Positions 1 to 62,159 of a stretch of DNA of 64,000 nucleotides are shown here, piece after piece. The notes under the pieces were generated by a model. That model had not been told where the DNA came from. It worked only from the letters and a program-made list of their open reading frames with translations, and ran no database searches. The stretch is from Podarcis pityusensis (lineage: Eukaryota), in assembly GCA_964106645.2 (NCBI GenBank), contig OZ067040.1. The stretch is one strand, 5' to 3'. The position numbers and the translations under genes were made by a program. Position 1 is the first letter of the stretch. Each line of letters begins with the position of its first letter.

Positions 1-1375
1 TTCATGCAAGTGGGACTGGGCCTTCAGGGCACCCTCTCACAAGCAATTCCAATTAACAGAGATGTCAAGCAAGGCTGTATACTGGTATTCTTCCCATTTA
101 ATTACTATATAAATAATCTCATTCCTGATATGGCATCCCCATCCTTCTTTGTCCCCACCCTTGGGAATTGTAAAATGCCAATTTTGCTCTACACCAATGA
201 CTTAGCTTTGTTATCCCAGAATAAAAGTGGACTTAGAAGGATGCTGGTTAAATTTGGACAGCTGTGTAAAAAAGAGCATCCAGAAATTAACTACAATAAA
301 ACCAAGGTCACTGTATTTGGCAAGAAGACTACTAAGTCCAGGTAGACTCTAGATGGTCACACCCTATAGACGGTCACACCCAGATTTAAATATCTAGGAT
401 TACTTATCAATGGGAAGTCATCATGGAAATCCCGTCTGGAAGCAATTAAGCTAATATCTGGCCATTCTACTGGGCAGCTATATAGGTTCTTCCATTCAAA
501 GGGTAGACAGTTAACCAACCCAGCTATCAAGATCTTTGTCTCTAAAATCATCGCTCAAATGCTTTATGGGGCTGAGATATGGGAAATTGGTGTCAAATCT
601 GAAATGGAAGTCCTACAAAATAAATTTATGAGGCAGATTTGGGGGCTTCCCTGTGGGACACCAGCAGCCCACCTCACAGCCTAGTTGGGCCTTCCCTCGC
701 TAGCAGCCAGAATTGATCTAGTCTACCTGAGATACTGGCACAGGCTAAATGCCTTGGAAGATCATACTCTTACTAAGTTCTGCTGGTTAGAGCAACTAAG
801 GACATGGAGCTGGGCACAAAAGTGCCAAGATAAGTTTAGGGTTTATAATCTCCAAATGGAGAACTACTTAGCCCTTAGCCCATGTGACCTCAGAAATTGG
901 ATTTTTGATCAGGATGCCAACCAAGACAGAGTATCCGTTATTGCTGCCTGATACTCTACTTGGTACCCCCAAATTAAGACCAATCACTCAAGGCCCCATT
1001 ACCTTGAGACTCTGACTTTTTCATAACTATGTAGGGACTTTGTAGAGCTAAGATTTCAACAGATGCCCTCAGCATATTTAGAGGGGAATTCTTAATTGGC
1101 TTCCAGGTCGATCCGCACAGGAAGTGACAGTTGAATTCCTAGCAGATAAATATCTATATATGACACACCAGGTAGCCAAATTTGCACTGGCAGCCAAGAA
1201 GCTCCATTCCAGCTATGTGAATGCACTCCAATTTTAAGTCTTAATGTTGTAAATTACTTTTATATTGTAAACTGCTACAGGCTACGTGTATGATTTTTGA
1301 TGGAAGTTTCCTTTTATTCTCTGTCGTCCATTGTAAAGCCCTTTGACTACATACAATAAATATTGATTGATTGAC
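1..1375 (+). mobile_element. Non-LTR retrotransposon, 3' part (RT domain to tail), decayed; RTE-X-like clade tentative
   Basis: ORF 4-345 has decayed RT motifs DVKQGCIL..FNYYINNL and ILLYTNDLALL (cf. GVRQGC.LSP.LFN and LLYADD). Downstream remnants: FKYLG, MLYGAEIW, ELRFQQMPSAYLEG, THQVAKFALAAKK. Ends with AATAAA and (ATTG)n at ~1354-1375. Confidence 0.85.
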
Positions 1376-6705: not shown

Positions 6706-6741
6706 TGGGCAGGTAAGAAACCTAAGAAATAAATACATGTA

Positions 6742-6964
6742 CAGTGATATCTCGGGTTAAGAACTTAATTTGTTCTGGAGGTCTGTTCTTAACCTGAAAC
6801 TGTTCTTAACTTGAGGTACCACTTTAGCTAATGGGGCCTCCCGCTGCCGCCGTGCTGCCAAGCGATTTCTGTTCTCATCCTGAAGTAAAGTTCTTAACCC
6901 GAGGTACTATTTCTGGGTTAGTGGAGTCTGTAACCTGAAGCGCCTGTAACCCGAGGTACCACTG
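6742..6964. mobile_element. Tc1/mariner (Tigger-like) MITE, family A
   Basis: TIRs CAGTGATATCTCGGGTTA / TAACCCGAGGTACCACTG with TA on both sides. Inverted relative to copies at 37202 and 61583. Confidence 0.92.
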
Positions 6965-14352: not shown

Positions 14353-14715
14353 TAAAGGTAAAGGTAAAGGTACCCCTGCCCATACGGGCCAGTCGTGTCC
14401 GACTCTAGGGTTGTGCGCCCATCTCACTTAAGAGGCCGGGGCCAGCGCTGTCCGGAGACACTTCCGGGTCACGTGGCCAGCGTGATGAAGCTGCTCTGGC
14501 GAGCCAGCACCAGCGCAGCACACGGAAACGCCGTTTACCTTCCCACTATAAAGCGGTACCTATTTATCTACTTGCCCTTAGGGGTGATTTCGAACTGCTA
14601 GGTGGGCAGGAGCTGGGACCGAAAGATGGGAGCTCACCCCGCCGCGGGGATTCGAACCTCCGACCATATGATCGGCAAATCCTAGGCACTTTACCCACAG
14701 CGCCACCCGCGTCCC
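14353..14715 (-). mobile_element. Sauria SINE, full length
   Basis: Reverse complement starts GGGACGCGGGTGGCGCTGTGGGT, B box GGTTCGAATCC, (ACCTTT)n tail. TAACAATA on both flanks; CpG-rich. Confidence 0.95.
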
Positions 14716-15984
14716 TATAACAATATATCCTCTATAACAATATATCCAATATATACCTAACAATATATCCTCTTAAAACCTAGAGGATGTACCTAATATA
14801 TACCTAACAATATATCCTCTTAAAATCTAGATGTCACTCGCCATTTTCATTGTAGAAGCTACCTTTAATGAGCAAGGCTTGTTGCCACCTTGCCACAGCC
14901 TTTGGCCTTGGGATCTCAGTGGGATGGCAAAACCTGCTCCTGTGCTGCTTCAGATGCTGAAATGTTTCCCTCCACTATCCAACCGATTCTGCACATAAGA
15001 AAATGAGCACGTCAGGGAGAAGGCTAGGCTAGAACCTTTCTCATGACACCAAGGTTTCTAGGTACAGAAAATCTTTGTGCATATAATGTGGGCTTCCGTA
15101 TGCAGATCAAAGTAGTACAGCCCAGGTCCAAGGAAGACTTACTAAAGACTTAGTAGTCTAATATTAGATCTTTATTGACAATACATATAATAAATGAAGA
15201 GGTGGAAAAACAGTCAGAGGCAGTAAGAAGATGTTTTCCTTGTTCTAATTTTGGAACAATACTGCAGTTTTGCACATGACTCACTGCAAGGCAGCACCCT
15301 GATTTTTATATGCCAATCTGCAACCTGCAACACGATGTTTACCAATAATATTATTTCTTCTTCATGCGCTGAGAGAATCAGCTACTCCTCTCCATTTACA
15401 ATGTATTTCTTTTAGCATTGTAGTGGTGTAGGTTGTGGCAACTGTCTTAAAAATATGTTGGGGTGTGTGTGATGCTTGTAATAGGGACTCAACTTGCAAC
15501 ACAATACAGTATGATTTTACTTTTCTTATAGTGATAATGAGTTTACCCACAGACTTCAGAATATGTTGCTATGTGGAAAAACAACCTCTTCTATAATCAT
15601 CTCCACAAGCCCATTAAAAGGAACCTGCAGGATTGTATCACCCAGAGCTTTCGAAAGTGTCATGTTAAAAACAACAAGAACCACCATAGAAGCTAGCCAA
15701 AGTTAACCTCTTTTATGCATATGTTAAATTGCTTGTTAAGAGCAGTGTGATTTAGATATGCTGAATGTCGTCTGCACCACAGCTGTGCCATTGTTACGTG
15801 CACCAAATATTTAACCACTTAGATATTCATAAATATAAAATTTCACACTCTCTCTCATCTAAACATTTGTGCCTAAGAAACTGGGAGAACATTTGGAACA
15901 CATCTCCTCTCCCCAGCATGGAGGCAAAGTAATTTGCCGGAGGATGTCTGTGCCTCGTTGTTGCCACCCCCAGCTATGGCTGGT

Positions 15985-22053: not shown

Positions 22054-24100
22054 AATTTACATTGGGAAAATGGATTGGAGGAAGCCCGCTTGCACTACAG
22101 TCTCAATCTCCAAACAGGGTTTGTGAGGTGGCATTTAGGAGAAGAAAGATATAGCTAATCATGGTGCTTGTGGAACCCCGAGTGCTTCAAAAAAGCAAAA
22201 AGCAGCAGCAGCAGCAACATAATATAATGTTTTATTGTAGAAAGTGAGTGGAAGTGAGCAAGGGGTAAGATATGTAGTAAAAGGAAATCAAGGTAGCCAA
22301 AGTTAGTGTTTTACCTATGAGGAGACATCAGGAAAATACTGCACGTGAACTTGGGGACTTCTTTCTCAGCCTCAAATATGGAACTCTGCCTTTCAAAATT
22401 GTTTTTAGCCTTTTAGTACAAGTTCTGCCTTCCCAGAACCTATTGTTCTTGTGATGCAATTGCCTAGGCTTTGGTAGAGCACTGGCCTTTGAGGAATATT
22501 CTTATAAAGTATGGGTAGATTTTTCTTTTTTAAAAAAATCCACCCTACTGTACTCTCAAAGTGCAAGAGGCATTGTCTTGGATGGCCATTGTTTTGTTTC
22601 TTCTAAGGAGGCCGCGAGGAACGACTGTCGGAACGTTACTTTTTCTCACAATGACAAGTTGGGATCATTTTACTGTTTCCACAGCTGCAGGGTGTTAAAT
22701 GCTGACTGCACCCAATTCTGTGATCATTGTACTGTATCTAACACACCCAGTCAAGTGTTAGATCTATTGCTGGCACGGACCCTTGCCTTCCTCTGGCTGT
22801 TGGGCTCTGATAAGTTAAAGTCCTCATGTGCTCCAATTATCTGCCTATCAGCTATGAGAGCTTCTCATTGACCATCACTAACCTTCATTTGACTTTCTGC
22901 TTCCTTTTGCAGCAACCCCCATCTCAAGCCTTTCTCCCACGCACAGCCAAACCAAGCATTTTGTGTGTGTGGGGGGGGGGTTAGCCCCTCTCAGCTTTGA
23001 GGTTTTTAAATCTGACATACTTTGCATCATTACTCTGCGGAAAATATTCTGCCACCTTTGGGGCATGAGGAGAGAGCTTCAAATAGGCTTCAGGCAATCA
23101 CGGAGCTAGGGGGAAAAGCAGGGGAGGGAGGAGGTAATGGTTTCACATGTATGCACCTGTCAAAATCTCAGAAGACATTTGGAGATATGCTGAGATGATG
23201 TACCTATATATTTTTTGCTTTGTTTGAACTCCCCAGAGGGTCTGGAAGCCTTCCCGTTAATTAAAGAGAAAGATTGGGTCATTAATTTGATTCTCAATTA
23301 ATTTGTCATTCAGCAAAGCCTATTTATTTCACCATGAAATGCTGACAAAGGAACGCAAGAGACTCAGGTTGCAACCAACTTTTCCATCTAGCTCTTCTCA
23401 AGCTGTGTGCAGTGACTAATAGCCATAAGAGACATCTCAGCCACTCTCTATTGATCATGTAGAAACATAAGTGTGAACTGGATTGTATACAGATACAGCT
23501 GGCAGACATTTCAGTGATTTCAACAGCAGCAACTTTTCCAGCCATCGCAATTATAGAAATTGCTGGGTGGATTCAGACAACCATTTACCAGATTCCAAGT
23601 CAACATGCAATGGATGCAGCCACTTGGTAACTTAGCTGTCTGTATTGCCTTGCCAAGTACTAAGAATTCTTACACACATCAGGACTAACTGTAAGTAAAA
23701 TGTGTGGTAAAAACAGCCTTCTGTATCCAGCTGTGGCTGTATCTGTGTGTAGTTTTGTCCACACTTCTGTTTATTTGACATGTAGCATATGGTTACATGC
23801 CATCCCAATCTGAGTGGTGTGAGATTCCAGGGGTACCAGGCATGCTTGCCAGGGTCTGTGTTCCCTTTAGGACAACGAGGCACAGTGGAGTCTATGGTGT
23901 CTTTACAAAGTATGGCATACTGACACATATATACAACCTGCGCCTAATTTGGAGGGGGTTCTGAGCATCACACTGCAAGTGGCACCACCTTCCAAAAGCA
24001 GCAGCATTCCTGCTCCGCCTAAGCCTTAGACATTTGTAACACAGGGAGTGGCCTCCACTCCCGTGATGTGTTGATTTGTTAATCTTCTGTTGCCTTAATG

Positions 24101-24236
24101 CACGCTTCCTCAAACTCGGCCCTCCGGATGTTTTTGGCGTACAACTCCCATGATCCCTAGCTAGCAGGATCAGTGGTCAGGGATGATGGGAATTGTAGTC
24201 TCAAAACATCTGGAGGGCTGAGGTTGAGGAAGCCTG
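24101..24236. mobile_element. URR1-like hAT-Charlie MITE
   Basis: Long TIRs CACGCTTCCTCAAACTCGGCCCTCC / GGAGGGCTGAGGTTGAGGAAGCCTG; TSD CCTTAATG/GCTTAATG. Confidence 0.92.
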
Positions 24237-26532
24237 GCTTAATGGCTCACTTCCCACTTAAACCATGTGGATATAGAGTTGCATCTACAGCAGCACAAGC
24301 AGATGCCTTCATCTGTGCCAGCTCTCCCATTTCCCATTACATCCACAGCAGGCGCTGCAACCTTCACACTCAAAGGCTCACTCTTCCATTGTCTCCCAAG
24401 ACTGATGGATGGTAACAATACAGATGGGGTCTAATACACAACTTAGGTCATCTGCCTGACTTCATTAACTTTCGCACATGCTCATTCCAGGGGTTTTTGA
24501 AGTGGGTGTCACACACAACCTAATACACACTCAGATCTATCTTAAGACACAATGGTCTGACATCCCTTTTTAACATACCATTTCTAATTAAAGTCTAACA
24601 TACATTATATCCAGGCATTTAGAACCCACAGACCTATAACAATATATTCCTAATAAAAACTGTTTGAAAATATCAGACACATTGTATATCAATGGATGAC
24701 TATGTATGTTGGAGTGTGGGCATGGAATCAGACTGTGTGTTTGCAAGACAGAGAGAGGCTTTCTTATAGCTTGGCCCAGGCCAAACAAACATTTTCCTAC
24801 CTAGTATGAGAGATAAGTGAAGGCATGAATAACAGATTCAGGGAAATCATGGGTACAGATAAACTTAGTATTGCTTTGGTCCTGCCTCACTTTATGCCTG
24901 GGAATATGGCGTGGGGCGTGGGAGAAAGGAAGATAAACCTCAGGCTCACTTCATACAAGATAGAAAACAGAAACCTGACTTTGACCAGGATTCTTCTCTG
25001 ACTTTAGAAATGGAACAAAGAGCTACCAAGACATTAAAAAAAGAGAGAAGAAACTGAATCTACCATTTGCTCAGCGATGTCACCTTTTAATCTTTATGTA
25101 GGAATTTCTTGTGGAAGGCAGGAATGAATAGAGTATCTTTTGCGAAAAGGAGGGGAGACATGCATGCAAGTGGGAGAAGGAGACAGATGGAGCTTTGTGG
25201 CTGGCATTTTTTTGATAGATTGCATGGAGGTGATGTGTTAAGATAAAATGCCAAAGATGTAGAGTTACAAGACAGCCTTAAAAGGCAACAGCAGAAGGTG
25301 GAAGGAAGTTAACCACCTCTCATCTTTCAGGTGAACAGAATAATCAGATTGCAAGGTAGAAAGGTGTTTCTTAACTTTAGGACCATGCGACTGCCAGGTG
25401 CTTGACAGCACTGTTGTACCTGCAGTGTCAGGCAGCGGAAAAGGTGATACAGCAAGGTCGGGGGGGGGGGGGAGATACATGATTAATGGTCTGTGTTCAG
25501 CTTGGTGAGTCATCAGTTGTGCAGAACTACTTAACCCTCATCAGACTACTGCCTTTTCTTCTGAATGACACATATCTCCCGATACCACAGTTGCTCAGGA
25601 CAAGTGCGTTTAAACATATATGTACACTGCTTTTCCATGTTCAGAGAATAAGCCCTTCCAGAACACAAATGCTTGGGGAAATTTAGGTCAAGTGGTGTGG
25701 TGTTCTAGGGGAAAATTATTTCCAAGGCAACCTTGACCTTATTCCTCTTTGGTGCAGGTTTCTAAACTAATGTATTCATGATAGTGTTCTAGTAGTGGGT
25801 TTTCCCAGGGCCTTCTGCATGATATCTTGCCTTCTATGAGTCTGAGAACTCTCTTTGCCAATATCACAGAGGAGCAATGGGATTTCATTATATTGGAACT
25901 CAGGAAAGAGTAGGGTTTCAGAGGCTCTATACCTGCTAAATAGAGGATGGGGAAAGCTCATTCAGTAGAGAACAGTTAGTGGTACGCATGGAACCCTTTT
26001 CCTCTTTGTGACCAATCCAATGCTGGCTCTTATTCTTCCAGCCAAAATGGAGACTTTTGAGTAAAGTTGCTGGGGGAACCATGTTTCCTGGCTAACAACC
26101 TACTATTATTTGATAAAGAGTTACTTTCCCCAGTTGTATTTGTTGCACACTCTCTCAGTGGAATTGGTATTTATATATTTATTTTTAAAAAAATCATAAA
26201 ATTTATACACCAATTGATTGTTAAAAAATGTATTATTTCTGGAGTGCCGCCTCCAACACAAGGCATCCAATTTGCTATTTTTATATTTATTGTAGAGCTT
26301 ACCACAGCTTGATTCCAAAACAAAAAATAACAAAAAAAAGAGAAAGAACAGCATCTGTAGCCTAGTTCTGAGCAAGTTAGTGTCTGTGTAGTGCCACTTC
26401 ATAAAGCTCTTTCAAACAAAACACCCCTTGCAAATAGAAATGTAGTGCTTTAGGGGAAGATTTGGCAAAACGAGGCTTTATTTCACCCTGGGTCAAAGAC
26501 CCAGTTTAGCACACACACCCCTCAGGCATTTG

Positions 26533-27150: not shown

Positions 27151-30100
27151 AACATCTTCTGATTCTACTTCAATAGACATAAATGGATGTCAGAAAGCCT
27201 TGTTCATTCTATCCCCCTCACAAGAAAATAGTGCATGGGCTTCTCAAATTTTATGACCATTTTAATGGATTTGATTTTTCAGTGATTATGAACAGATCTG
27301 GGAACAAACACCAGGGAATGGCAATCACCTTCAGGCCTGGTCTTCTATTTGAGAGACTTCTGGCTGCTAACTCTTGTTGGAAACAGAAAGCTAGTCTAAG
27401 TGAACTTTTGACTGGTTGAGGAAAGCTATTTTCCTAAGATTATATTTTTGTACTCAGATTATGAAAGGAAGCAAAGGTTGTAAATGAGAGAGGATTAGAG
27501 TTAATACACATATGAGCCTGTGAAATAGATATTTCCTAACTCTGTGTTTCTATGAAACCTTATAGATATTGTCCATTTCCTCTGTTCTGATTATACCAGT
27601 GAGTATAACTTAACACCTGGCTGGGCCTGCACTGAAATTTGGATCATGGCAGAGAGCCCCAATTCATAGAGGCTCTTCCACTTCTAGGTCCACAGCTGAA
27701 CCCTGATTCAGGAATGCATAGGTATGGGCTTCTTCCCTCTTCCCATGTACTATCACATGAAGATGTAGTTTCATGCCAGTAGCTGGGCACTTCACTAGCA
27801 GCCCTTAAGCACCCAACTCACTGTCCCCTGTGCCCCTGTAGGTTGGAAGGGTGGGGGGGAATCTGGACAGCTAATTTGGAGACATATAATCCTATAATTG
27901 AAATGGTGAAGTCTAAAGTTCTGTTTGCTGTGGAGACTCTAGGTCTGGGCAGAACTAAACCATGATAGCTGTAAACCTGCCTCAACTAGAATACCGCTAC
28001 AAATACTGCATTTGCATTTCATGGGGAAACAAAAAACGATCTTCTGTACAGTGGTAGATGCACATAACTGCCTGGCCATGAGCTGACACATTTTCCCCAT
28101 TGTAATCAAGAAGCAAATAGCTGCATGAAAAAGTGTGATACATAAATAGGTTAGACCCATGGCTTTTGTTAAATAAAGGCCACTAATAAAGTTTATGTAG
28201 AAGTACTTAGTCTGATTTTCTAGCTAAGTACAAAGCATAATCCATTAATATCTGTAAATTGGCAAAGCCATGACATTATTTCCATGCAAAACATTTGCTT
28301 AATGTACTTTTCTAGTCACATAATCATTAGCACAGATTAGGTATTATCCCATGCCCTCTGCAGCAACATTTGCATACCATATTGCACATAATCTTAACCC
28401 TATTACAAAGCCTGCTCCGAGTTCTTGTATCTGGAGATTAGACTAAAACAAAAAGAAACCGATTGAACCTGTTGTGGGATTTCTCAAATTAGAATTCTTT
28501 GGCAACTTTTTGTTTCAAACGTCTCTTCACAGCTCTCCGCCAAGGGAGAGAAAATGAGTCTGGCCTTTGCCATGCCTGTGAAGTCATTATCCTGTCAGGA
28601 ATGACACACAGAATTGAACCAACAGAAACAAACTTCCGGCTTCACTCAGAGCCTCTCACAATGAAATCTGGCTGGACATGGACTTTGAACGTTACACTCA
28701 TTGTTTATTTCTTTGAGATATAACCTAATATAATTATTTTATTCTCCATGAAAGGAAGCATATAGTAGTTCTTTGCAAAGCAGCTCTCTCGCTACAGTTT
28801 TTCATGTGCTCCCTTGAATTATTCCAATACTTAAAAATTGGAAGAAAAAGCCACTATATATGGGTGGCCAGTAGGTCTGAGAATAGCTGTCAATTTTTTC
28901 CTTTTTTTAAGGGAAATTCCCTTATTCCAAATAGGATTCCTCGCAAGAAAAGGGAAAAGTTGACAGCTATGGGTCTGAGTGAAGCCTAGTACACCCAGGT
29001 CTGTCAGCCAGGCTTCATCCCCCAGCCTGCCTGCGATTGGCCAATTCAAATGTGCATTCTCCTGGGGGCCCACACAGCTCCTGGAGGAGGATGACGTTCT
29101 CCAATGGCCTCATTGAATGAGGGTTCAAACAGCTGCAGCTGTGCCTGTCCGCAGCCACCAACCTCCCAGGATTATTGGTGAGTATTCTTTGTCACACACA
29201 AAAAACTTCATTAGATGGTGCTGGATCCAGGAAAATGCAGGTGTAAAGCAGCTAATGGATTGGGGGACTTGAGTGAAGTGTGGTGCAAAGGCTGTGAGAG
29301 AAGGAGGGATCCCTGAAAGTTGGGTGGAGGGAAGCAACCTCTTCAAGTGAGCTCTCCCTTTTTCTCTCAGACCCAATTACCACAGCCTGTTCCATTCAGC
29401 AGAGACCCCAACCGTCAAGAGAGATGGAGGGCAGTGGTGGTCCATGGTGACAGGGAAGTCAGCTTCTGCCAGCTTTGTTCTGTGTACATCTTTTCCAGAT
29501 CCAGCCCATTCTCTCTGCTATTTTGCAGTTAAATGATCAAGTTCTCATCTTGCTCTTTGATAGAGGGACTGGTAAAACTTTCAAACAGTCAGAAAATGGA
29601 TGCGGTATAATTGAGGGAAGAAGTGAAAAGAACTGGTAAACAAGACATAAAAGAAAGCTGAAACATTTAGGGCAGATACCAATCAAGAAACACATCTGAA
29701 GAAATTATATTATCCAGGCCCTCTCATATTTTGTTATTTTGTTCTGCAGCTGCTGTTCATGCGTTTCTCGCCCATACGCCCCTTCCTTTCAGAATTGTGG
29801 ACGGATGATTATTATTTTTTTATGCGTGTTCCATTGAAGAAAAAAAAACAGGATCACTTTGTGTCAGCTACTTGTGTGTAAAAGGAGGAGGGAGACAGCT
29901 GGGGAATTCCAAGATCAAATACATAGCATGAGTCACAACCCAGGGGGAAAACCAGTCCTAAACGTTTTGCTACTGAGTATGCTGCACTTGACACAATGGG
30001 ACTTACAGTACAATCCTACTGAGGTTTCCTTGGGAGTAAGTAATGTTTCTACTGCTGGAAATTGCTGAACCACTTCTAGGGAAGTAGACAATAAGATGAA

Positions 30101-34554: not shown

Positions 34555-34733
34555 AAGCCACTCTCTGAGATCATCTGGGCAAGCACTATTTGTAGTCCCC
34601 CATCAATAGACCAGAAGCGTAACTCATGTCAATAAGATGCTGTGCGTTCATTGTAGTGGGCCCAACTATATGGAAATGCCTCCTACGAGAAACCAGGCAG
34701 GCACCAACCCTATTAAGTTTCACATGCCTGGTT
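34555..34733 (+). mobile_element. L2 ORF2 C-terminal fragment (older)
   Basis: SLRSSGQAL..AFIVVGPTIWKCL..RQAPTLLSF. Confidence 0.7.
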
Positions 34734-35078
34734 ATTTCCTTGAGATCTGATGGGAGGGCGTTCCACAGGGCGGGCGCCACTACCGAGAAGGCCCTCTGAC
34801 AGGTTCCCTCTAACTTCACTTCTCGCAGTGAGGGAACTGCCAGAAGGCCCTTGGTGCTGGACCTCAGTGTCCAGGCTGAATGATGGGGGTGGAGAAGCTC
34901 CTTCACGTTTACTGGACCGAGGCCATTTAGGGCTTTAAAGGTCAGCCCTGAATTGTGCTTGGAAACATACTGGGAGCCAATGTAGGTCTTTCAGTACTGG
35001 TGTTATATGGTCTCAGTGGCCACTCCGAGTAACCAGTCTAGCTGCCGCATTCTGGATTTGTTGTAGTTTCTGGGTCAC
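34732..35078 (-). mobile_element. L2 ORF2 C-terminal fragment (younger)
   Basis: KLQQIQNAAARLVT..TLRSSTKGLLAVPS..RAFSVVAPALWNALPSDLKEI. Confidence 0.9.
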
Positions 35079-35550: not shown

Positions 35551-37201
35551 ACACATGAAGCGTTTGGCGTTACCTTGCTTCGGATCACCAGCCATGCATA
35601 ATTGCTGTGGGGTTTTTTTTAAAATAAAAAATACCTTCATTTTTATTCTATTAGAAGTAAAGTCCATCTGCTTCCTCAGGTAAACTTGGGTCAAGTGACC
35701 CATTCAGGAGACTTGTTTTCTTATATATTATTATAATATAAATAAATGAGAGCGATAAGACTGCAGAGACAAAAAATCCTTCAGAAGAGTTTTAACTTTT
35801 ATTTACTTCCCCAGCACATTTATATTGGAACATTGCCATAGGACGGTCAGATTTTACCATTACCGAAACACCTTGGAATCCAGATATCTCAATCTAACTT
35901 TCCCCCATATTCCTGATTCTAGTGGTTAGAAGGAGATTAGAGTATATAGTGTAGATTTAATGTCATCCTGGCAGGAGGTGGCAGGTGAGGAATCCTGTCA
36001 GTCCCCGATTTACTGCTTAACAGTAGGGGGAAGCTTTAGAACAACCCCCCTCCAGACCATCATAAGCACTTCTTTATTGTCGGCCTGTCAGAATGCCACA
36101 CAGGGTAGCCCCGAAGCTTAAAAGAGATTTATGAAAAAAGACCACCTGGAGACTATCTTATTTTTATCATTTTAAAAGGACATGAAAAGATCATTTGCAG
36201 TTGTATCCCTTTCCTGGTCAGTGCACAAATCCACAAAAGGGCAATTCACAGAGGAAAACCAGCGCAGGCAATTTGATGGGGATGTACTTTCTTTTCATAC
36301 ACTGTTGACCAGTTTGGTTCTATTACCTGAATTGATTTGTGGTATATTAAGCCTGCTTTGTTTAGCTTTTTAATTTCCATATGTATAAAGCTGGATAGTC
36401 CCCAAACAGCAGGCGGTGCTCATATTGTGCTAAATATTCTTAAGTTGAAAGAGAGACATGAAAGGAGACTGTTTTTAGAACCTTTATTGTTTGCTTTTAC
36501 CTTTCTTCCCCCCATCCACGCTCACAGTGTCAGAAAGTGCTCATTTTAGAAAGTCTAAAATCCCAACCATGCATAATAACTAGTATTAATCTTGTATTGT
36601 GTACAGATCTGTCAACATCTGTCAGGAACAAAAAGTGTCAGTATTTTTTCAAAAAAAGGATTTAGGATAATTAAAGGAAATTCTTAAAACTCCAGCCAGC
36701 AATGATTTTAGTACAATAGTAACATACAAACAAACAAAGCAAGCAACAAAAGTATTATATGTAAGGAATGGCAGGGGGTTGGAGAGTAGGACGAAGTATG
36801 ACTTTCTGCAGATTTCATCTATTATTTCTCTATAGGCTGGTTCTAGACGGGTGAACAAAGGCTGGTGATTTTTTTTAAGGTGACAGCAGTGTAGGCTGAA
36901 GGATCTGATATCAACTTGGACTCTGATATCAACTTGGACTCTAGGCAGCATTTACATTGCTCAGGTGGAGGCAATGGTTAATTTTCAATTGAGATCTAGA
37001 GTGGTTTGAGCTATTCTCCAACAAGGAACCTGATCCTATTGATACCAAGCTATAGATAATGTTCTGGACATGTTAAGAGGCATCTTCTTCATTACTGCCT
37101 GACAAATTTCAATGCTGAGTCTTAACATTCAAAACAGTTTTTTTTGTTTTGTTATCGGTCCCTTTCTGCATAGAGTTACAGTCTGTGGGATTCGTAAGGT
37201 A

Positions 37202-37443
37202 CAGTGGTACCTCAGGTTACATACGCTTCAGGTTACATACGCTTCAGGTTACAGAGTCCGCTAACCCAGAAATAGTGTTTCAGGTTAAGAACTTTGCTTC
37301 AGGATGAGAACAGAAATCAGGCTCCGGCGGCGTGGCAACAGCAGGAGGCCCCATTAGCTAAAGTGGTGCTTCAGGTTAAGAACAATTTCAGGTTAAGTAT
37401 GGACCTCTGGAACGAATTAAGTACTTAACCTGAGGTACCACTG
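37202..37443. mobile_element. Tc1/mariner MITE, family A
   Basis: CAGTGGTACCTCAGGTTA...TAACCTGAGGTACCACTG, TA TSD. Confidence 0.95.
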
Positions 37444-37929
37444 TATCTCACAGGCCCAGTTCAGACAAAACAATGCTAGTTCAATAAACCATGGGATAGG
37501 TCTTATCTCCATATAATCCCTTCTCACACTTTCTTTTCCTTCCTTTGGCATCTGGCTGTTTTCGGTTTTTTTAAATCCCTGTTTCCCATGATGCCTGGAT
37601 TAGAAACCTGTGGCTTAAGAAACAAAGGCAAGAAGAAGGACAAAATATAGCATGGGGCCATATGGAATCTTCCTTGTTCGAGAAACCATAGCTTGGTCCA
37701 GGACTGAGTGGGTGCTCCACTATGATTTGCCTGAGAACAGAATAACAAAATGCTATTGCCTCTGAAGAACAGTAAATTTGCTCAGAATGCAACAAAACAC
37801 AGCAAGGTGATTTGGAAAATTCTTTTTGATATAAACTTAACATAGTTCTCAGCCCTTTCGGTGTTGTCTGTACCTTCAAATGCTGTGAGGGACTGAAGTA
37901 GAATGAAACCACTGCTGCTCTTATTCCTA

Positions 37930-41704: not shown

Positions 41705-42306
41705 CCGTATTTTTTGCTCTATAAGACGCACTTTCCCCCTCCTAAAAAGTAAGGGGAAATGTATGTGCGTCTTATGGAGCGAATGCAGGCACGAGGCTCT
41801 GCTCAGTGCTCCCTTTAAAGAGCCGTGTAGAGCGTGTGTGTGTGGCTCCTGGGGGCTTTTCCCCAAGGAGGGAGAAGGGCTGCCCTTCTCCCTCCTTGGG
41901 TAAAGCTCCCAAGAGCCGCACACACACTTCGTGCGCTCTTTAAAGGGAGTGGCGGCTCTTGGGGGAGCCTTCGGCCTTAGCCGTGTGCAGCCTCTTCCAG
42001 GCAGGCGGAACCTTCATCCCCCTGACCAGGAGAAGCTGCACGCAGCTATCCCATAAGACAGGACAGCAAGCGGGATCGCTGCGCAGCAATCCTGCTTGCT
42101 GTCCTGGCTCCTGCCTTCATCTGGCTGCCTGGGAGAGACTGTGCGTGGCTATCCCATAAGCCAGGACAGTAAGAGGCTATCCCAGAAGCCAGATCCCTCT
42201 TGCTGTTCTGGCTTCTGGGATTCAGAATATTTTTTTTCTTGTTTTCCTCCTCCAAAAACTAGGTGCGTCCTATGGTCTGGTGCACCTTATAGAGCGAAAA
42301 ATACGG
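41705..42306. mobile_element. pogo/Tigger-like MITE with internal palindrome
   Basis: TIRs CCGTATTTTTTGCTCTATAAG / CTTATAGAGCGAAAAATACGG; flanks CA and TA; hairpin at 41809-41949. Confidence 0.9.
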
Positions 42307-47697: not shown

Positions 47698-47958
47698 GAG
47701 CCAGTGTGGTGTAGTGGTTAAGAGTGGTGGACTTGTAATCTGGGGAACCGGGTTTGATTCCCCGCTCCTCCACATGCAGCTGCTGGGTGACCTTGGGCCA
47801 GTCACACTTCTTTGAAGTCTCTCAGCCCCACTCACCTCACAGAGTGTTTGTTGTGGGGGAGGAAGGGAAAGGAGAATGTTAGCCGCTTTGAGACTCCTTA
47901 AAGGGAGTGAAAGGCAGGATATCAAATCCAAACTCTTCTCTTCTTCTCTTCTTCTTCT
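47698..47958 (+). mobile_element. Squam3-type SINE, full length
   Basis: GAGCCAGTGTGGTGTAGTGGTTAAGAG head, B box GGTTTGATTCC, GCCGCTTTGAGACTCC 3' region, (CTT)n tail. Confidence 0.9.
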
Positions 47959-48030
47959 GCACACATGCTTTGCTTTGCAGTTCCTGCAGCCAATATGAAT
48001 GTCTAGATCAGAATATAATTAAGTGCTTAC

Positions 48031-48358
48031 TTAAACCACAGAGCCTAGGACTTGCTGATCAGAAGGTTGGTGGTTCGAATCCCTGTGACGGGGTGAGCTC
48101 CCATTGCTCAGTCCCTGCTCCTGCCAACCTAGCAGTTCGAAAGCACGTCAAAGTTCAAGTAGATAAGTAGGTACCACTCCGGCGGGAAGGTAAATGGCGT
48201 TTCCGTGTGCTGCTCTGGTTCGCCCGAAGCGGCTTAATCATGCTGGCCACATGACCCGGAAGCTGTATGCCAGCTTCCTCGGCAGATAAAGCAAGATGAG
48301 TGCCGCAACCCCAGTTGGCCACGACTGGACCTAATGGTCAGGGATCCCTTTACCTTTA
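48031..48358 (+). mobile_element. Sauria SINE, 5'-truncated
   Basis: GGTTCGAATCCC..CTAGCAGTTCGAAAGCA..CATGACCCGGAAG..CCCTTTACCTTTA. Confidence 0.93.
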
Positions 48359-53294: not shown

Positions 53295-55506
53295 TACTTA
53301 CTTCTTTCCAATGAAAACCAATGGAACTTAAGAATATTTTCCTTTGACTTAACACTATGAATTATGGGTACTGATATTTGTTGAGAACTTTCTAGAAGTG
53401 TCTCAAAACATTTTTTGGGGGGGAGTTTAATAATACTTCATATGGATCCCCAAATCCTGTAACACCAAGGCCATCCTTACAGGTGCTGGAATGTATGTGA
53501 TCCAGCAGCAGCAGCTCCCAAGTGTTCCACCTGAGTCCTACAGTCATTCTACTCCCTAGTGACCTCTGTTCTACACCAGCATTGCCCATTTCAGAGGAGA
53601 GATGACGTTGGTATGAAAAGTGCTGCATGAGATACAGATCTCCACATTAAGGAAGTGGAGGAAAGATAATTCCAGAAGGAGGCCATTTCAGTTGGCATTT
53701 GATAATTAAGTTGACATGTGGAGTGACCTAAATAGAACATTCTAAATGATAAAAAAAAATCCTATTATTTCCCAGCAATGTTCACTCAACCTGGAGTGGA
53801 CATTACTCAGTTTAGCAATTGTTTACATATATAATTTTTGTGAGTAAATTTAAATTGCCCCAACTTTATATTGGGCACCTGGAAAACTGGAATAAACTAG
53901 TAGAACTTGATGTCATCGTTTCCACTGAAAGTACCACATGTACAATGGCTGCTTATTGTAGACTCAGTTAAATGGCCAGTGCTTCCCACCTTTAATTATC
54001 TTTGCCATAACTTGAAAATGAGGATTTGTGTTTGCTTTGATCACCATTCTCAAATTCCTGTATAGTACTGCTTCTGAGTTTCACGCTCTTGAATAGGTGA
54101 GAGCTGTGAATATCCCTGGGCAGTAAATGATATTTTCTCAAGGATTTGTGATTGGCATGAATTGTCTAACAGCAGACACTTAGAAACAATCTCTTTTGTT
54201 GTCACTTTTAAGAGCTCATGAATACTTTAAGGCACACGCCATGTTATGTGAGGAATCTGGCTCTTCCGCTTGCTGAACTGAAGACCCCTTGGAGCCAAAA
54301 GGAGTGACTTCATCAAACGAAGGAAAGTAGAAACTCCATTAGCTGTAGCAGCAAGGCTTATAAATTATTTCTGAGCCTCCCGATGAAGGACAGGCCATAA
54401 AATACTTCGAGCAAAGTGCTTGATTCCAAACGAGCACATACAAAGATGTGCCAGTGCGATGCATACTGTTTCAGCAGATGTGCATTTAGCTGCACCATTA
54501 TCTTCAAAGCGCATGTTTGTGGGGTGGTGGTGGGTTATGCTGAAGAGCTATGTAGGTGACAACTTGATTGAGAAATGCCAGCTGTGTGGCTTGGACAGGA
54601 ACTCTTTATATACAAAAGAAGCTACTTAGACTGTTTGGCTTATTTTGTTGCACTGAAAGGAAAAACTCCTTGAGCTGCCAAAATTATCTGATGAAAATAC
54701 TTGGTAGGGGAAATTCATGCGGGAAAATCTTCTTTTTCCTACAAAAGCATTTTTTTATATATAAAAGTGCTAAGGCTACACAGCTGGAGTGAGATTTTTG
54801 TCAAAAAATAGTCTGCACTTTCTTCTCGGAGTCTGCATACTGGCAGATATTGCTGATCGTCAGGTATTACTCTCCCTAACTAGAAGTTTAATTTTGTCAC
54901 TATAGTTTTAACTTGGTTTCATGGCTGACATACCAGTTATTCTTGCTGTCATGATTTCAAATAAGGAAAGCAAGTACCAGTGGGAAAGGTATAATATTCC
55001 CCCCCCCCCCGTCATAATTCTGCTTGTTGGGTCAGCTATCGGCTAGAGCAACAACTTTTTTTTTTAATGAGGCTTGTTCATGTGGCTTTAAGAATGGACA
55101 GAAACCCCAAAATGAAGCAGGTGAAGTTTTCACCACCATACCAGGAAACCTATGTCCGTGATGACAGGGGTGCACGGCTGGGGCCCGACCATCACCTGCT
55201 AAAAGTTTGCCTAGCAGGATGTTGTTAAAACCACAGTAGAAAAGGCCAGGAAGCAAAGGTACAGCAGGGGAAGTTTTTTTAAAAAAAGATTTTAATGCTT
55301 TATCTAAGTTTTAATTTTTTTAAAAAATATATCCTATTTTGCTCTCTTCTAACAAGAACAACCAGCTCAGAGCTCTTCAGAACTCCTTGGACAGCATTCT
55401 AGACATCCACAGATTGCAGCTTGACAACTGAGTGCTAGGCCAAAGTTTCAAACAACATACAAGCAAGAACATACACCACTTAGCCACTTCTTAATTATTT
55501 TGATGT

Positions 55507-56631
55507 GGGGGGGCCAGCATTGGAAGATGGCCGACAATAACATCTCTCTGACCCATACGAGGTAATTAAGAGGTTGCTATGGGAAGTATGCAGTCTTCCT
55601 ACCCCCCCAAGGAGATGGGGGGGCTGCCTTGCCAGCGGTGTCCACAATGCACCCCCAGATTCGAGGTCTGGGGGCGCCGGTCACTTGGCACGAGCCCTCG
55701 ATGCGGTCAGCTCTTCCTGACGCCGATTCCAATCAGCGCGTGCTGGTTAGCTTCAGCTCGGAATTATAATTGGAATGAAGCTGAAGCACATACATCAAGT
55801 AACGCTCGAGAGATAAGACTGCTGATTAATGGATCTCTGTGACCGGGAGTGACGGACGGATAAGTAAATCTTCTGATGAATCACCATTAAGAGACTGTAT
55901 GTTTGGAATGAAGGGGGGGTGGAGGAAAAAACCTTTTTTCTTTGTACTATGTGATATTAATAACCCTTCACCCCAGAAAGAAACAAGATCATTGCGTTTT
56001 ACTAATCACAAGCAGGAAGTTAAGAACTGTGTGGGATGGATTATAGCTAGAAAGGATTGGTAAACAATGAGAACGGAGGAAAATTCTATGACGCAGTCAA
56101 AAAATGGCGTCTCGCCAAGACAGGCTTGCCGGAGAAAGAAGGACAGGGGGAGGAGAATCAGGACCATTGGAATGAGAAGGATTGCTGGAATGTAATTTTG
56201 ACCTGACAGAGCCTCCTGATATACTGGGCAAGTCTGAGAAAAGTAAAGGACGGACCAAAGATTATTTTTTTTTTTATGGAAGCGAGGAACAGCGGCTGTC
56301 CCTGAGCGATATGATCTTTGGAGAGTACAAAACCCACATAGAGCATGTTTGTTTCCAATCTGCTTGTGAAAATTATCAGAGATTTCAAAGAAAGGAATAT
56401 ACGATAACAACGAGAAGATGAAGAAAGTAATAAAGGACTATCTGGATTGAACTGGATAGAACTGTTTAATTAATGCAGCAATATAAGTGATGTTTGGACT
56501 CGTCCGGAGCTTGATGTATGGGTACCCCCAACAAAATTTAAAATTCCGCTGTATAATTTGGAACTAATGTCATTTGGATAATGTGATGTGATTGGCCTGT
56601 TAATAAAAATTATTTTTTAAAAAAATATATA
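55507..56631 (+). mobile_element. Full-length ~1.1-kb non-autonomous L1-type retroelement, copy 1
   Basis: Perfect 15-bp TSD TAATTATTTTGATGT (55492-55506, 56632-56646). 5' G-run plus AAGATGGCCG, AATAAA and A/T tail. Homologous to 57602-58753. Confidence 0.88.
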
Positions 56632-57601
56632 TAATTATTTTGATGTAAGAAAGAGCAACACACACACACACACACTTGCTCTTCCCCTCAAGAACATGAA
56701 GAAAAGTACAAACCTCTTACTTTCCCCTCCCTCTCAAACATCCCTGCATCTATTTGCCCGAAACTTGGCAGATTTAGTCCACTCTGAAGTGGGTAGGCAT
56801 AGCTTCCCAGATATGGGTGGGTTCTTGGTTTACATAGTTAGTAGACTGCAATGCTATACTCATTTACTTGGGAGTAAGACAGTTGAACTCAGTGTATGTC
56901 AGTCTCCTTAGCACCACTTCTCTGGCCAGATTTATGTGTTTATAGCTTGCAATTCTGCCCACTTCCTTTGTATTTATTATGCAATTTATCATCATGGCAA
57001 TTCCGGCCTCATCTAGTGAATTTCCCTAGATGTTCATCATAAGTAGCTTAAACTCACTTTAGCTATTTAAGCATTATTAAAATAATGGACAGAGATACTA
57101 ATACACAACACAGTAAACAGCAGTAGATACTAATGGGAAGAAATCATTGAAATAATTACATTGGTGTGTAGCCGATTAATTTCAAAACCTTCACTCTGTA
57201 TCTGAAATTAAATAGAACAGAATTATATTGAAAAGTGGGGTAGGGAGTTTAAACTGATTTGCTTTAACAGTGCCACTAAAAGATTATGCTTTTGTGCAGG
57301 TGCCTTCATGTGAACGTCAGGTGTTATGAAACATTTTCTGCAGGTTTTCCCTATGATGAGATAGCATCATATCCAATGGCAGAAGGCAGAGCTGATGTTG
57401 CAGTCTGGTTTCAGTCATTTCCCATATCTCATGTGACAAGGAAAGCTTGGAGAATGTTGGGGGAATACCATACCAGCTCTTTAGCCACACAAGGATCATT
57501 TGAGGAGAATACAAAACTTGGCCTCTCCCGGGAGGGATGGAGACTTAGTCTCAAGTAGGCAGATGTGCTTAGTCACAGGCAGGCATTTGGGTGGTTTTCT
57601 A

Positions 57602-58753
57602 TTTTTTAAAAAAATAATTTTTATTAACATGCCAATCAAATCACATTAATTCCAAATCACATTAATCCCAAATTATACAGCCAAATTTTTAAAATTTTAT
57701 TGGGGGTACCCATACTTCGAGCTCTGAAAGGGATCCAAACATCACTCTTGTTGCTGCTTTAATTACACAGTTCTGTCCAGTTCTGTCCATATAGTCTCTT
57801 TGTTATTTTCCTCATCTTCTTGTTGTTATCATATATTCCTTTCTTTGTGATCTCTGATAATCTTCACAAGTGGGTTGAAAACAAACATATCCTGTGTGGA
57901 TTTTACACTCTCCAAGAGCCATATCACATAAAGGACAGACGCCATTTCCATACCTCCGCAAATAACATTCCCACAGTCTGTCCGTTGATTTCCACAGGCC
58001 TGCGAATCTATATCTCAGGGGGCCCTGCCAGGTCAAATCCACATTCTGATAACCATACATTCACATTCCAATGACCATGGTCCTCCTCCCCCTCGTCCTC
58101 CTGTGGGCAGGCCTGTCTTAACGAATCTCCATTTGAAACTGCGTCACAAAGCTTTCTTTCCATCCGATGTTCCCACCAGTCCTCTCTTTGATCAGTAATT
58201 CATTTCCACACAGTTCTTAATCTCCTGCTTGTGATTAGTAATTTGCAACGATTCTTTCTCTCTGGGAGGGAGGATTATTGGGTACTCACATAAGACAAAA
58301 AAAGAGAAAAGTTTTTCCTCCCCCCCCTTTCTGTTCCGCTCCGACATACCAATCTTTTAATGATGAGTCTTCACTTGATTTATTGTCCAGCCCATCGCTC
58401 CGCTCACAGAGATCCCATTAATCAGCAGTCTTTACTCCCGATCTTCACTTGAAGTATGTGCATTTGCTTCTATTTCCAATTATATATTTCGAGCTGATGC
58501 AAACCAGTGCGTGATTCGGAGACAGCGTCCGGAAGAGCCGACTCCACCTGAGGGCTTCGTGCCTAGTGTCCTTGTCACCCCCTTCTTTCGAATCTGGGGG
58601 TGAATTATGGACACAGCAGGCAAGGCAGTACCCCCCATTCCCTTGGGGGGCAGGGGAGGCTGCATACTCCCATATCAGCCTCTTAATTACCTCGTGTGGG
58701 TCAGAGAGATGTTATTGTCGGCCATCTTCCAATGCGCCCCCTGGTGGCCCCCC
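57602..58753 (-). mobile_element. Full-length ~1.15-kb non-autonomous L1-type retroelement, copy 2
   Basis: Perfect 18-bp TSD CATTTGGGTGGTTTTCTA (57584-57601, 58754-58771). Same 5' and 3' structure as copy 1. Confidence 0.88.
58734..58747 (-). promoter_or_regulatory. CTCF consensus core
   Basis: Minus strand reads CCACCAGGGGGCGC, an exact match to the canonical core. Binding is not shown. Confidence 0.7.
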
Positions 58754-60830
58754 CATTTGGGTGGTTTTCTAATACCGTGAAGTCTTCTTCAGCACCCTTC
58801 CTCTCTTCATAATGCCTTCCCACTGCCCCTACAGAGTAGATTTTGACCAGTCACATTTCCTTTGGGTGGGGTGTGTGTGGCTATATAGGAATTAGGGGGA
58901 ATCCCCTGATTGGCCTTTGAGACTCCTCTTTTTCACCTACGTCACACTGTGATATTTTGTTATTGTTCTGATGATTTGTCCTGTTTGCAATACAGTGCAG
59001 GTAGGTGAGGAAATTAAGATCTTTATCACTTTAGGTGGCATTGGGTTAAAAGGTGATATTGAGTCACTTTCCATAGCCTTTAGCTTAGGGGACATTGTGA
59101 GTGTCCCTTATGCCTGGTGTGCATGACTTGGTGAATACTGGACAGTGGGACAGGTTTTTTTTTTTTTTTTTTAGTAAGGAGGGATAATTTTCTTTCATTT
59201 CTTGGCTGTGGAGCCACATCATCTGGCTGTGTTAACATCCCTACAGGACAAATTAATTCAACCCACCTGTCCATACTCGCACCATCTCATTATTCTTTGG
59301 CAGATCAACTAGTTATATTGTAAATAATTATAACCTTTCTATCAATTACTCTGTCTCTTGAGTCTTCTTCCTGGGTGGGATGAGAAACAGCTGCGAATGG
59401 GTTAATGAGAGGACAGTGGTGCATTTACATGACTTGTAAAAAAGAGGGGAGAAACTTAGCATGCAGTGGTATTTTTCATAGGGAACAGTTAGGGTTAGTT
59501 GCCCACCTTCCCAAAGCCTGCCTGGTTTTAGAAAGGAGGCAGCAGGACTCCTGGATCCTGTCAGAGTCCGGGAACCCCCTTCCCAAGGCCTAGGAAGCTT
59601 GTGCCCAGCTTATGGGGGAAGGCACAATGCTCTGAGGGAGTCAGAGCACCCTCCTGCCACTGGCCCGACGGTGCAGGAAAAGGGAGAGAACAACTAAGGA
59701 CCATTGAAATAAATGCCGACAAACTCTCTGGCTGTGTTTTCCTGGAACTGCTGCAGGCAGTTAGGAAGAGAAGTGCTTTCTCAACCCCTAAGAAGCTGCA
59801 AAACTTCTTCCCTTGCCTGATTGTGCCTGCTTTCAGGAATACGCCCCCCCCCCCCCCGTGCTTCAGTCCTCATTCCCCTGCCTATATGACATCTAAGTCA
59901 ATCTATACAACCTGAAGAACCATGCAGTACAGGTATTTCTCAACTGCATCAGTTCAGCATGGAAGTGCAGAGTTGGATATTTGAGGTTCCCTTAGAAAAA
60001 CAGGCAAGTGGCGTCCTAGGGATCACAGTACTCTTAGAAACCTTTTCTTTGCCCGTAACAAGGAGTTATGTGGAAAGTGTTCCTCTATTATCCTGTCTCC
60101 CACTTGAAGCCTGAAATGGTATATCCTAGCTAGAGTTTTGCTCGTGTTACTTGTCTCACAGAAGGTTCTCAGGTCAAAAAGATCTAGAATGAGATGGACT
60201 CTCATCACCTCACTGTGACTGATGGTGACATAACAATTTCACTTTGGAGGCCTAGCCTATCACATCTGAGTGTGATGTGTTGGCAGAATATCATTGTTTA
60301 AGAATTCTAACATATTGTGTGCATGACTTGCTCAAGTGTCAGTGACCAGATTTAATTTAGAAGAGTAGGGGTCTAAGTAGAAGATGAAGGCCTTGGCTTA
60401 AGATTTCTGTGTGCCACTCAATTTGAAAAATACTGTGATTGATCACATACTTTTTTCTAGTAATAAAAATCAGCCATCCTCCCAATAGCAAACTCAGGTG
60501 GTGAATGACAACAGTACTGAAACCAAAAAAAGGGCCAGTGAGAAATAAGATGGTGGTATCAATATGCTCAGGAAACTGTACATAAATATTTTTTATGTCA
60601 CAACATGCATTTAAAAACCTTAAGGGTGTACCTTCATCCAAGAAGGAAGCTTAATGAGGACTGAGCATATTCAACAGAAGAATATTGATTGATGGTGATT
60701 AAAGAAGAACAGAAAGGAAGGATAGAATGGAGTAACTTGGAGAAAGCACTGCTTGGGAATGAGAATTTATGTTAGGAGGTGAGGTTGCACTGCAACATTT
60801 GATTGTAGCTCCCTCTTGGTTTTCCTAAAC

Positions 60831-60966
60831 CAGGCATAGGCAAACTCGGTCCTCCAGATGTTTTGGGACTACAACTCCCATCACCCCTAGCTAATAGGAC
60901 CAGTGGTCAGGGATGATGGGAATTGTAGTCCCAAAACATCTGGGGGGCCAAGTTTGCCTATGCCTG
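60831..60966. mobile_element. URR1-like hAT-Charlie MITE
   Basis: TIRs CAGGCATAGGCAAACT / AGTTTGCCTATGCCTG; perfect TSD TCCTAAAC. Confidence 0.95.
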
Positions 60967-61308
60967 TCCTAAACTGCACGTAGCGTGATGAATCTCATCA
61001 CAAAGAGCTGGGATACTTTCTATAATAGAAGCAAAATGGCTTAACGCAGTGTGCCGTTTACAAGGATGCTTCGTGACTTTACATATCAGTGCATGTTGTG
61101 TGACTATCTAAAACATGATTGATTCCAATACATTCTGTACTGATGAGGATTTGATGACAGAATACCAAACCAAGAGTTATTTACTGGATTATACATCAAA
61201 ATACTTGTAAGAGGCATAGTTCATGCCTGTCAAAGGGCTTGTGAGCATATAAAAATGAGAAAAAAAGCTTTCTCTCATCAGAAACAAGATTAATGTTGTG
61301 CTGATTAA

Positions 61309-61350: not shown

Positions 61351-61582
61351 CTCAGTGCATTAAGGACAGGTATTCATTATACATATATAGTAGACTAATA
61401 TCATTTTCAAAGGTGCCCATAATTAAACACTTAGTGGCCTAACTTATTCTGAAGATACATTTCCTCAAGGGCCCTATAAATAAAAATCATTTGCAGATAT
61501 TAATGTGCTGTAAAATATCTATGAAAAATAACGTAGATTGTTTCTGGAAAGCTTTATTTTTAGTCAAAGAAAAAATGACATA

Positions 61583-61824
61583 CAGTGGTACCTTGGGTTA
61601 CATACGCTTCAGGTTACATACGCTTCAGGTTACAGACTCTGCTAACCCAGAAATATTACCTTGGGTTAAAAACTTTGCTTCAGGATGAGAACAGAAATCG
61701 TGCTCTGGCGGTGTGGCAGCAGCAGGGGCCCCCGTTAGCTAAAGTGGTGCTTCAGGTTAAGAACAGTTTCAGGTTAAGAATGGACCTCCGGAACGAATTA
61801 AGTATTTAACCCGAGGTACCACTG
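61583..61824. mobile_element. Tc1/mariner MITE, family A
   Basis: CAGTGGTACCTTGGGTTA...TAACCCGAGGTACCACTG, TA TSD; closely similar to 37202-37443. Confidence 0.95.
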
Positions 61825-62159
61825 TATTTAGATATATTGCTGAAGCAGGCCCAAGGCCCGCTTTTCTGTCTCCCACAACAGTGTGGCATTCAGAAACCTA
61901 GCAGGTGAATGGCATCCTGTCATGAAAAGGGACTGCTCTGTTCACAAGAATGTAGCTGCCACTTGAGATCAGCTTCGCAGATCCTTCTCTGTGTGCCTTG
62001 CCTTTTCATGTGAAACTACCTCTCCAGACATCTGCCCTGGCCATCTTCCTGCTCCTCCTTCAGGCACCAGGTGAAATCGGTCCTGTTCACACCTGAAATG
62101 CCTTTTAATGTTTTTTAAAGGACCCTTTTAATTGCCTTTCCATTTTTTAAAAAAAATAT

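Follow-up and report, generated by a model that had tools for sequence, protein, structure and literature searches.

Retroposon-mediated spread of CTCF-binding sites is well established in mammals, and two related insertions in a 64,000-nucleotide stretch of the Podarcis pityusensis genome (contig OZ067040.1; the whole stretch is hereafter the window) raise the question whether a lizard element does the same. One of them (copy 2) begins with a near-consensus CTCF motif beside a YY1-type motif, and a 9-nucleotide difference removes the CTCF motif from the other (copy 1). Is this motif an inherited part of the element, and would it serve the element itself or the architecture of host chromatin? 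The reading that we prefer, and to which as a whole we assign about even chances, is that of a non-coding, non-autonomous retroposon of about 1.14 kb with an L1-type RNA polymerase II (pol II) promoter, in which the CTCF core derives from the tip of the source element and is used by the promoter.

Both copies are complete retroposed insertions, as attested by exact target site duplications (TSDs) and by an AATAAA signal with an A/T tail. Copy 2 occupies 57602..58753 (-; 1152 bp) between two 100% identical 18-bp TSDs, the 5' one at 58754..58771 (-) and the 3' one at 57584..57601 (-). Copy 1, a full-length member of the same family, occupies 55507..56631 (+; 1125 bp) and is bounded by a pair of 15-bp TSDs, also 100% identical, at 55492..55506 (+) on the 5' side and 56632..56646 (+) on the 3' side. 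The two are convergent (tail to tail) and about 940 bp apart, and an nhmmer search of the 64-kb window detected no further or truncated copies. Because the G at 58754 is also the last base of the TSD, the G-run at the start of copy 2 is 6 or 7 long. The polyadenylation signals, at 57620..57625 (-) in copy 2 and 56602..56607 (+) in copy 1, lie 24-30 nt before the element end and are followed by T6-7 A6-7, a short tail with no microsatellite, to which copy 1 adds an extra TATATA. Both TSDs begin with TA after T, and the insertion sites (approximately TT/AGAAAA for copy 2 and TT/AATT for copy 1; n=2) bear only a loose likeness to TT/AAAA.

The copies are 76% identical over 1166 alignment columns. 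By tiles of 50 columns, identity amounts to 40-44 positions in the first 150 columns, frequently drops to 27-35 in the middle and reaches 38-45 in the 300 columns that precede the tail. Within this middle part, which is otherwise 60-70% identical, short near-identical blocks (in copy 1 around 55820-55842 (+) and around 56002-56032 (+), and at the corresponding places of copy 2) suggest conserved protein- or RNA-binding motifs. The CpG observed/expected ratio is 0.67 and 0.49 in the two copies, 0.24 in the window and 0.13 between the copies; the two element values are reached by 0 and 6 of 216 tiles, respectively. Since the copies are CpG-rich and only 19 of the 153 transitions between them lie in a CpG context, most of the 24% divergence probably stems from two source lineages. 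Judged by the sequences, each copy is probably close to its own source, and the two would represent fairly young insertions from long-separated lineages; copy 1, which is full length, seems no older than copy 2.

The beginning of the element is reminiscent of LINE-1. In both copies, a YY1-type motif, AAGATGGCCG, comes just after the 5' G-run: in copy 2 at 58719..58728 (-), starting at +26 and 8 nt after a second G-run, and in copy 1 at 55524..55533 (+), starting at +18. These are the only two matches in the window to the pattern used, a pattern that gives at least two matches in 5 of 100 shuffles. The mammalian L1 5' consensus likewise consists of a G-run followed by CAAGATGGC, where the YY1 motif sets transcription initiation (reported second-hand in PMC5381506). 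Vertebrate LINE-1 5' UTR promoters have in common with the element the 5' G-run with a YY1 motif within 10-25 nt and the CpG-rich head, and LINE-1 also resembles it in the AATAAA signal, the A-rich tail and TSDs of 15-18 bp; the element differs in its size of 1.1 kb and in the absence of ORF1 and ORF2. Among lizard L1 elements, the tips of anole clade 1 end in ATGGCG and those of clade 2, like frog tips, contain a G-run or are GC-rich (PMC5381506); the tip of the element matches neither the clade-1 nor the clade-2 anole consensus printed there. By analogy, the YY1 motif would be part of the expected L1-type promoter anatomy. At L1 elements, YY1 plays a dual role, activating and repressing (PMC8535693), and its binding to young L1 elements in human cells is seen chiefly in embryonal lines (PMC10879037). 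The ATG inside the YY1 motif opens a 12-codon ORF (MADNNISLTHTR) in both copies, at 55527-55565 (+) and 58687-58725 (-); the single difference between the two versions is synonymous, and the ORF ends at a 5' splice-site-like sequence.

Several better-known element classes were considered and rejected. An autonomous LINE-1 or HAL1 does not fit: coding signal for ORF1p/ORF2p is absent, though the 5' G-run and YY1 motif are present. Codon-position bias was absent from 16 ungapped alignment blocks, and of the 27 gaps just 4 have a length divisible by three; there is no long sense ORF, and Pfam comparison of 21 of the 32 ORFs of the element region produced two weak matches, none above the cut-off. 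HAL1 is L1-type, non-autonomous and pol II-driven, in which it resembles the element, but it encodes ORF1p (PMC5786205). The possibility of a residual L1 ORF close to the 3' end was also discarded (162 protein candidates for the 3' ORF pair, none with E<=0.01, and no codon signal), and protein searches found no link between the element and L1. The classical SINE class of the B2, Sauria SINE or Squam3 type fares no better: ARAGORN predicted 0 tRNAs, box A/B is absent, and there are internal T4+ runs. Rfam searches gave no match at the gathering score, the sole match (E 0.74) lying between the copies. For an HDV-like 5' ribozyme, Rfam gave no match, and a relaxed partial descriptor of our own, a weak test, found none in copy 2; its one match, partial and unconserved, is in copy 1.

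Searches for relatives through two antisense ORFs that span the motif, and in which the indel is in frame, returned 76 candidates for the first, none with E<=0.001, and no candidate for the second; a full HMMER scan with the antisense-ORF profile gave a single match (E=1e-3), at profile positions 17-48 and thus away from the motif. Such searches are uninformative on copy number, as the protein sets may well omit the spurious ORFs of a lizard repeat. Scans of prokaryotic genomes for the element gave 0 matches and then 2, of 19-22 nt, in one bacterial species; these do not extend and were judged to be chance.

The element has no ORF, as is expected of bipartite non-autonomous LINEs, and it shares with RIME, NARTc, Bov-A, RTESINE and the Vingi and R2 derivatives a non-coding nature and probable transcription by pol II (PMC5786205). 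As in these ORF-less elements, the 5' and 3' ends are conserved and the middle is more variable (PMC5786205); the element differs from them in its L1-type hallmarks. The clades for which bipartite LINEs of this ORF-less, non-autonomous kind were on record in 2018 were RTE, Ingi, Vingi and R2 only, so that an ORF-less element of L1 type would lie outside all four (PMC5786205). TSD lengths are mostly 7-18 bp in the L1 clade and 7-15 bp in the RTE clade (PMC6007223); the 15- and 18-bp TSDs found here fit the L1 range and the longer exceeds the RTE range, which argues for L1-clade machinery. Under our preferred reading, pol II would transcribe the element from an internal promoter in the first ~40 nt, starting at the G-run in a position determined by the YY1 motif, as in L1; after polyadenylation, the RNA would serve as a template in trans for L1-clade proteins, which would copy it via target-primed reverse transcription.

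The same hallmarks could be explained without a self-propagating family, if the copies were processed pseudogenes of a host non-coding RNA with CTCF and YY1 sites near its promoter-proximal start. TSDs, a poly(A) signal and a YY1 motif close to the start fit retrocopies too, and the 12-codon ORF that starts in the YY1 motif of both copies, as well as the better-than-shuffled folding of the 5' 300 nt described below, can be cited in favor of this possibility. However, two CpG-rich copies 24% apart would require two source genes, two independent insertions less than 1 kb apart suggest an abundant family, and an Rfam match is absent; we regard the pseudogene explanation as very unlikely.

The CTCF motif predicted at the tip of copy 2 spans 58732..58750 (-), that is, +4 to +22 of the element, and matches 16 of the 19 bases of the consensus printed in bioRxiv 10.1101/024620 and also in 10.1101/2022.08.11.503410. 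Its 14-mer core, CCACCAGGGGGCGC, lies at 58734-58747 (-), and the motif points into the element body, i.e. to lower coordinates and toward copy 1. When up to 3 mismatches are allowed, the 19-mer consensus has a single match in the window, at 58732-58750 and with the 16 identities contiguous, and none in 100 dinucleotide shuffles. The core, with up to 2 mismatches, also matches once in the window, at a loose setting under which 13 of 100 shuffles match too, and a degenerate CTCF pattern discriminates less, with at least 2 matches in 17 of 100 shuffles. All bit scores and p values that follow rest on one CTCF count matrix. By this matrix, the copy 2 site scores 22.3 of 29.1 bits, with 13.5 for the second-best site in the window; its per-site p is 2e-8, and the score is reached in 4 of 300 Markov-1 simulated windows. 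The earlier note had described a perfect CTCF core at this place, and the core is indeed real and far above chance.

Copy 2 contains the core only, an upstream second CTCF module not being seen there by eye. Five nucleotides separate the core from the YY1 motif, a spacing at which simultaneous binding of CTCF and YY1 may be hindered. The core includes one CpG only, near its 3' end. Because the CpGs that regulate binding at the H19 and beta-globin CTCF sites occupy other positions (PMC6746451), methylation may not block the copy 2 site. Elsewhere in the window, a weak CTCF-like score of 10 bits at 62049-62067 (-) overlaps or abuts a YY1-like AAGATGGCC that starts at 62047 on the same strand (region 62039-62067); this pairing is probably due to chance, though it is the same as that at the tip of copy 2.

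The sequences that the earlier note gave for the two 5' tips are correct, copy 2 starting at 58753 (-) and copy 1 at 55507 (+), and its claim that a 9-bp difference creates or destroys the CTCF core holds as well. A MAFFT alignment with flanks introduces one clean 9-nt gap, corresponding to CCAGGGGGC at 58736..58744 (-), a segment of copy 2 that copy 1 lacks, and a scan of the whole of copy 1 with the count matrix yields no CTCF site, the best score being 1.6 bits. The note had further described the CTCF-YY1 pair as absent from copy 1; this is true of the CTCF core, whereas the YY1 motif is found in both copies. Two alignments trimmed exactly at the tips instead contain an 8-nt gap, in one case with 4 mismatches, a possible though poorer reading of the tips that speaks against a core already present in the source RNA.

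As to the origin of the 9 nt, a tandem duplication or local template copy was rejected, given that no copy with at most one mismatch lies within ~300 bp of either tip; one 8/9 match occurs deep in copy 2 on the opposite strand, and no microhomology is present at the ends of the 9 nt. The observed 9-mer has the top score (count matrix) among the 262,144 possible 9-mers at that place, of which 0.23% give any CTCF site at p<=1e-5. A private random gain of the core is unlikely, since it would have to hit the best of 262,144 sequences, and a loss needs no luck. From the sequences of the two copies, we infer that the core was probably already present in the source RNA of copy 2, in which case its siblings should carry it, and that copy 1 or its lineage probably lost the 9 nt (n=2 copies); a gain by one subfamily would be the less likely polarity. 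If the loss occurred in the source of copy 1, the CTCF site is dispensable for mobilization; copy 1 suggests that the site is non-essential.

The motif might, alternatively, be private to copy 2 and have arisen during integration, when template jumps at the 5' junction joined the G-run of the RNA and the target DNA. The tip of copy 2 indeed has CCACC, 5 nt within its first 12, in common with its own target site, a coincidence noticed post hoc that 3.7% of random 18-mers would show likewise; furthermore, an alternative alignment sets the G-run of copy 1 against the second G-run of copy 2, whose 8-nt distance to the YY1 motif is near-canonical in comparison with 7 in the mammalian L1 consensus (PMC5381506). 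Such an origin would nevertheless take at least 2 jumps, plus an account of the first 9 nt that the copies have in common, and a single 9-nt gap without mismatch is simpler. We consider this origin to have little chance of being correct, and a core inherited from the source element remains the preferred reading.

A further constraint on the tip may come from RNA structure. A multi-hairpin 5' RNA domain is predicted in both copies, at 55507-55797 (+) and 58454-58753 (-), and comprises C6/G6 hairpins as well as a long arm in which two pairs are changed on both sides. In both copies, folding of the first ~300 nt surpasses that of shuffled sequences, with z of -2.80 (1/200) and -2.54 (4/200). The consensus fold has 76 pairs, 3 of which show changes on both sides, and is closed where the YY1 segment pairs with its partial reverse complement at about +212 to +223 (58531..58542 (-) in copy 2, 55706-55717 (+) in copy 1). 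Independent folds of the first 240 columns have 28 pairs in common, with a null of 8 +/- 8 (4/200; a column shuffle that does not keep dinucleotides). Covariation gives no support for the 5' fold, the 2 compensatory pairs comparing with a shuffle mean of 1.5 and being reached in 25 of 60 shuffles, and in copy 1 the antisense strand folds no worse than the sense strand. Taken as a model, the fold suggests a structured 5' domain as a second constraint on the tip. In the third hairpin of copy 1, at 55661-55681 (+), a run of GGGGGCGC resembles the 3' half of the CTCF core and is no site by score.

These predictions bear on the possibility that the motif in the source element is a mere coincidence of a G-rich, L1-like tip and RNA-structure constraints, with neither CTCF binding nor selection for it. 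The 3' half of the motif looks like the G-rich tips that are common among L1 elements, such as the G-run or GC-rich tips of lizard clade-2 and frog L1 (PMC5381506), and in the predicted fold of copy 2 it is paired downstream. Given this 3' half, random upstream bases produce a site at p<=1e-6 with a probability of 0.25-0.5%, so that chance alone can supply one in a scan of a whole genome, and this site was picked post hoc from a genome scan; in addition, copy 1 does without the site. On the other side, the observed score is reached from that start with a probability of only 4e-5 to 1e-4, and the predicted folds leave most of the 5' half of the core unpaired. Moreover, a near-consensus CTCF site is likely to be bound, whatever its origin. 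On balance, coincidence appears improbable, and we return to the preferred reading, a core inherited from the source and used by the element.

Under that reading, the site would most likely serve the element by helping to maintain its promoter in an open, active state, the role that CTCF has at the human L1 5' UTR: the L1HS 5' UTR is bound by CTCF, and CTCF knockdown lowers its promoter activity (PMC6004460). The arrangement differs, in that the CTCF motif of the element precedes YY1 at the very tip and that of L1HS is internal. Because the site lies within the first 22 nt, only full-length copies would carry it, always pointing inward. Insulation or looping of host chromatin by the carrier copies, if any, would be a by-product; an inward-pointing site, if bound, could stall loop extrusion, in accordance with models of convergent sites (10.1101/024620).

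The opposite emphasis had been proposed, namely that the 9 nt were gained by one subfamily, which scatters CTCF+YY1 loop anchors of fixed orientation and thereby reshapes host chromatin, at this locus among others, in surroundings that the earlier note took to be enhancer-like. For the CTCF part, the site is near consensus, its orientation is fixed by the anatomy of the element, and there is precedent in the SINE-spread CTCF sites that act as insulators in rodents, dog and opossum, namely B2, the canoid SINE LYS and opossum MAR_Mdo (PMC3368268). The claim of YY1 as a second looping anchor, in contrast, found no support: a G-run with YY1 is the standard L1 start (PMC5381506), so that the motif, which occurs in both copies, is no evidence of a looping pair and is accounted for by an L1-type promoter. 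A gain would also need the best of all possible 9-mers, and regions co-bound by CTCF and YY1 are active, often promoter-proximal and resemble active YY1 regions (PMC4056453). Dispersal of loop anchors therefore seems doubtful, about as much so as coincidence, and promoter use by the element is again the explanation that we prefer.

The comparison with B2 applies in outcome, a CTCF core within a retroposon, and not in anatomy, the element having neither a tRNA-derived head nor pol III boxes. Like the CTCF-carrying SINEs, it is a non-autonomous retroposon with a CTCF core, and the presence of the core only is shared with the dog and opossum elements (PMC3368268); it differs from them in being several times longer and in its reptile host, and its predicted motif is present in one of two copies. 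If the tip of copy 2 proved to be family-wide and bound, the spreading of CTCF sites would extend to lizards, and the carrier and non-carrier sub-lineages would form natural pairs for testing, in a reptile, insulators made by retroposons. The broadest version of this proposal would be that lizards harbor a family of retroposons without ORFs, driven by pol II and dependent on L1, which have a structured 5' RNA domain and have kept a consensus CTCF site at the transcription start, such that every full-length copy plants a bound, inward-pointing site; it strikes us as unlikely. At the level of titles and the openings of abstracts, the literature yielded no squamate CTCF-carrying retroposon and no mention of this family, which Repbase, Dfam or supplementary data may already list. 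The novelty may reside in the occurrence, in a reptile, of an L1-like element of pol II type that has no ORF; as far as the sequences go, the CTCF half of the story would be a testable lead from one copy, and the YY1 half ordinary L1 promoter biology.

Comparison of 249 ORFs with Pfam detected no host gene, the 4 weak matches (E 0.036-0.085) all being under the cut-off, in a search that short exons would escape. The ORFs at 370-684 (+) and 34586-34990 (-) had no Pfam match and look like what we take to be decayed C-terminal fragments of LINE ORF2. Two copies that are presumably Sauria SINE-like lie at 14359-14716 (-) and 48030-48358 (+) and are 77% identical; close to the latter, 47700-47945 (+) is occupied by what we assume to be a Squam3-like SINE. 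A CpG-rich repeat of ~250 bp is present in three copies, 84-90% identical, at 37200-37446, 61581-61827 and 6740-6954, and palindromic, MITE-like elements with internal inverted repeats occur at 60831-60972, 24095-24242, 41809-41949, 42056-42109 and 28883-28970.
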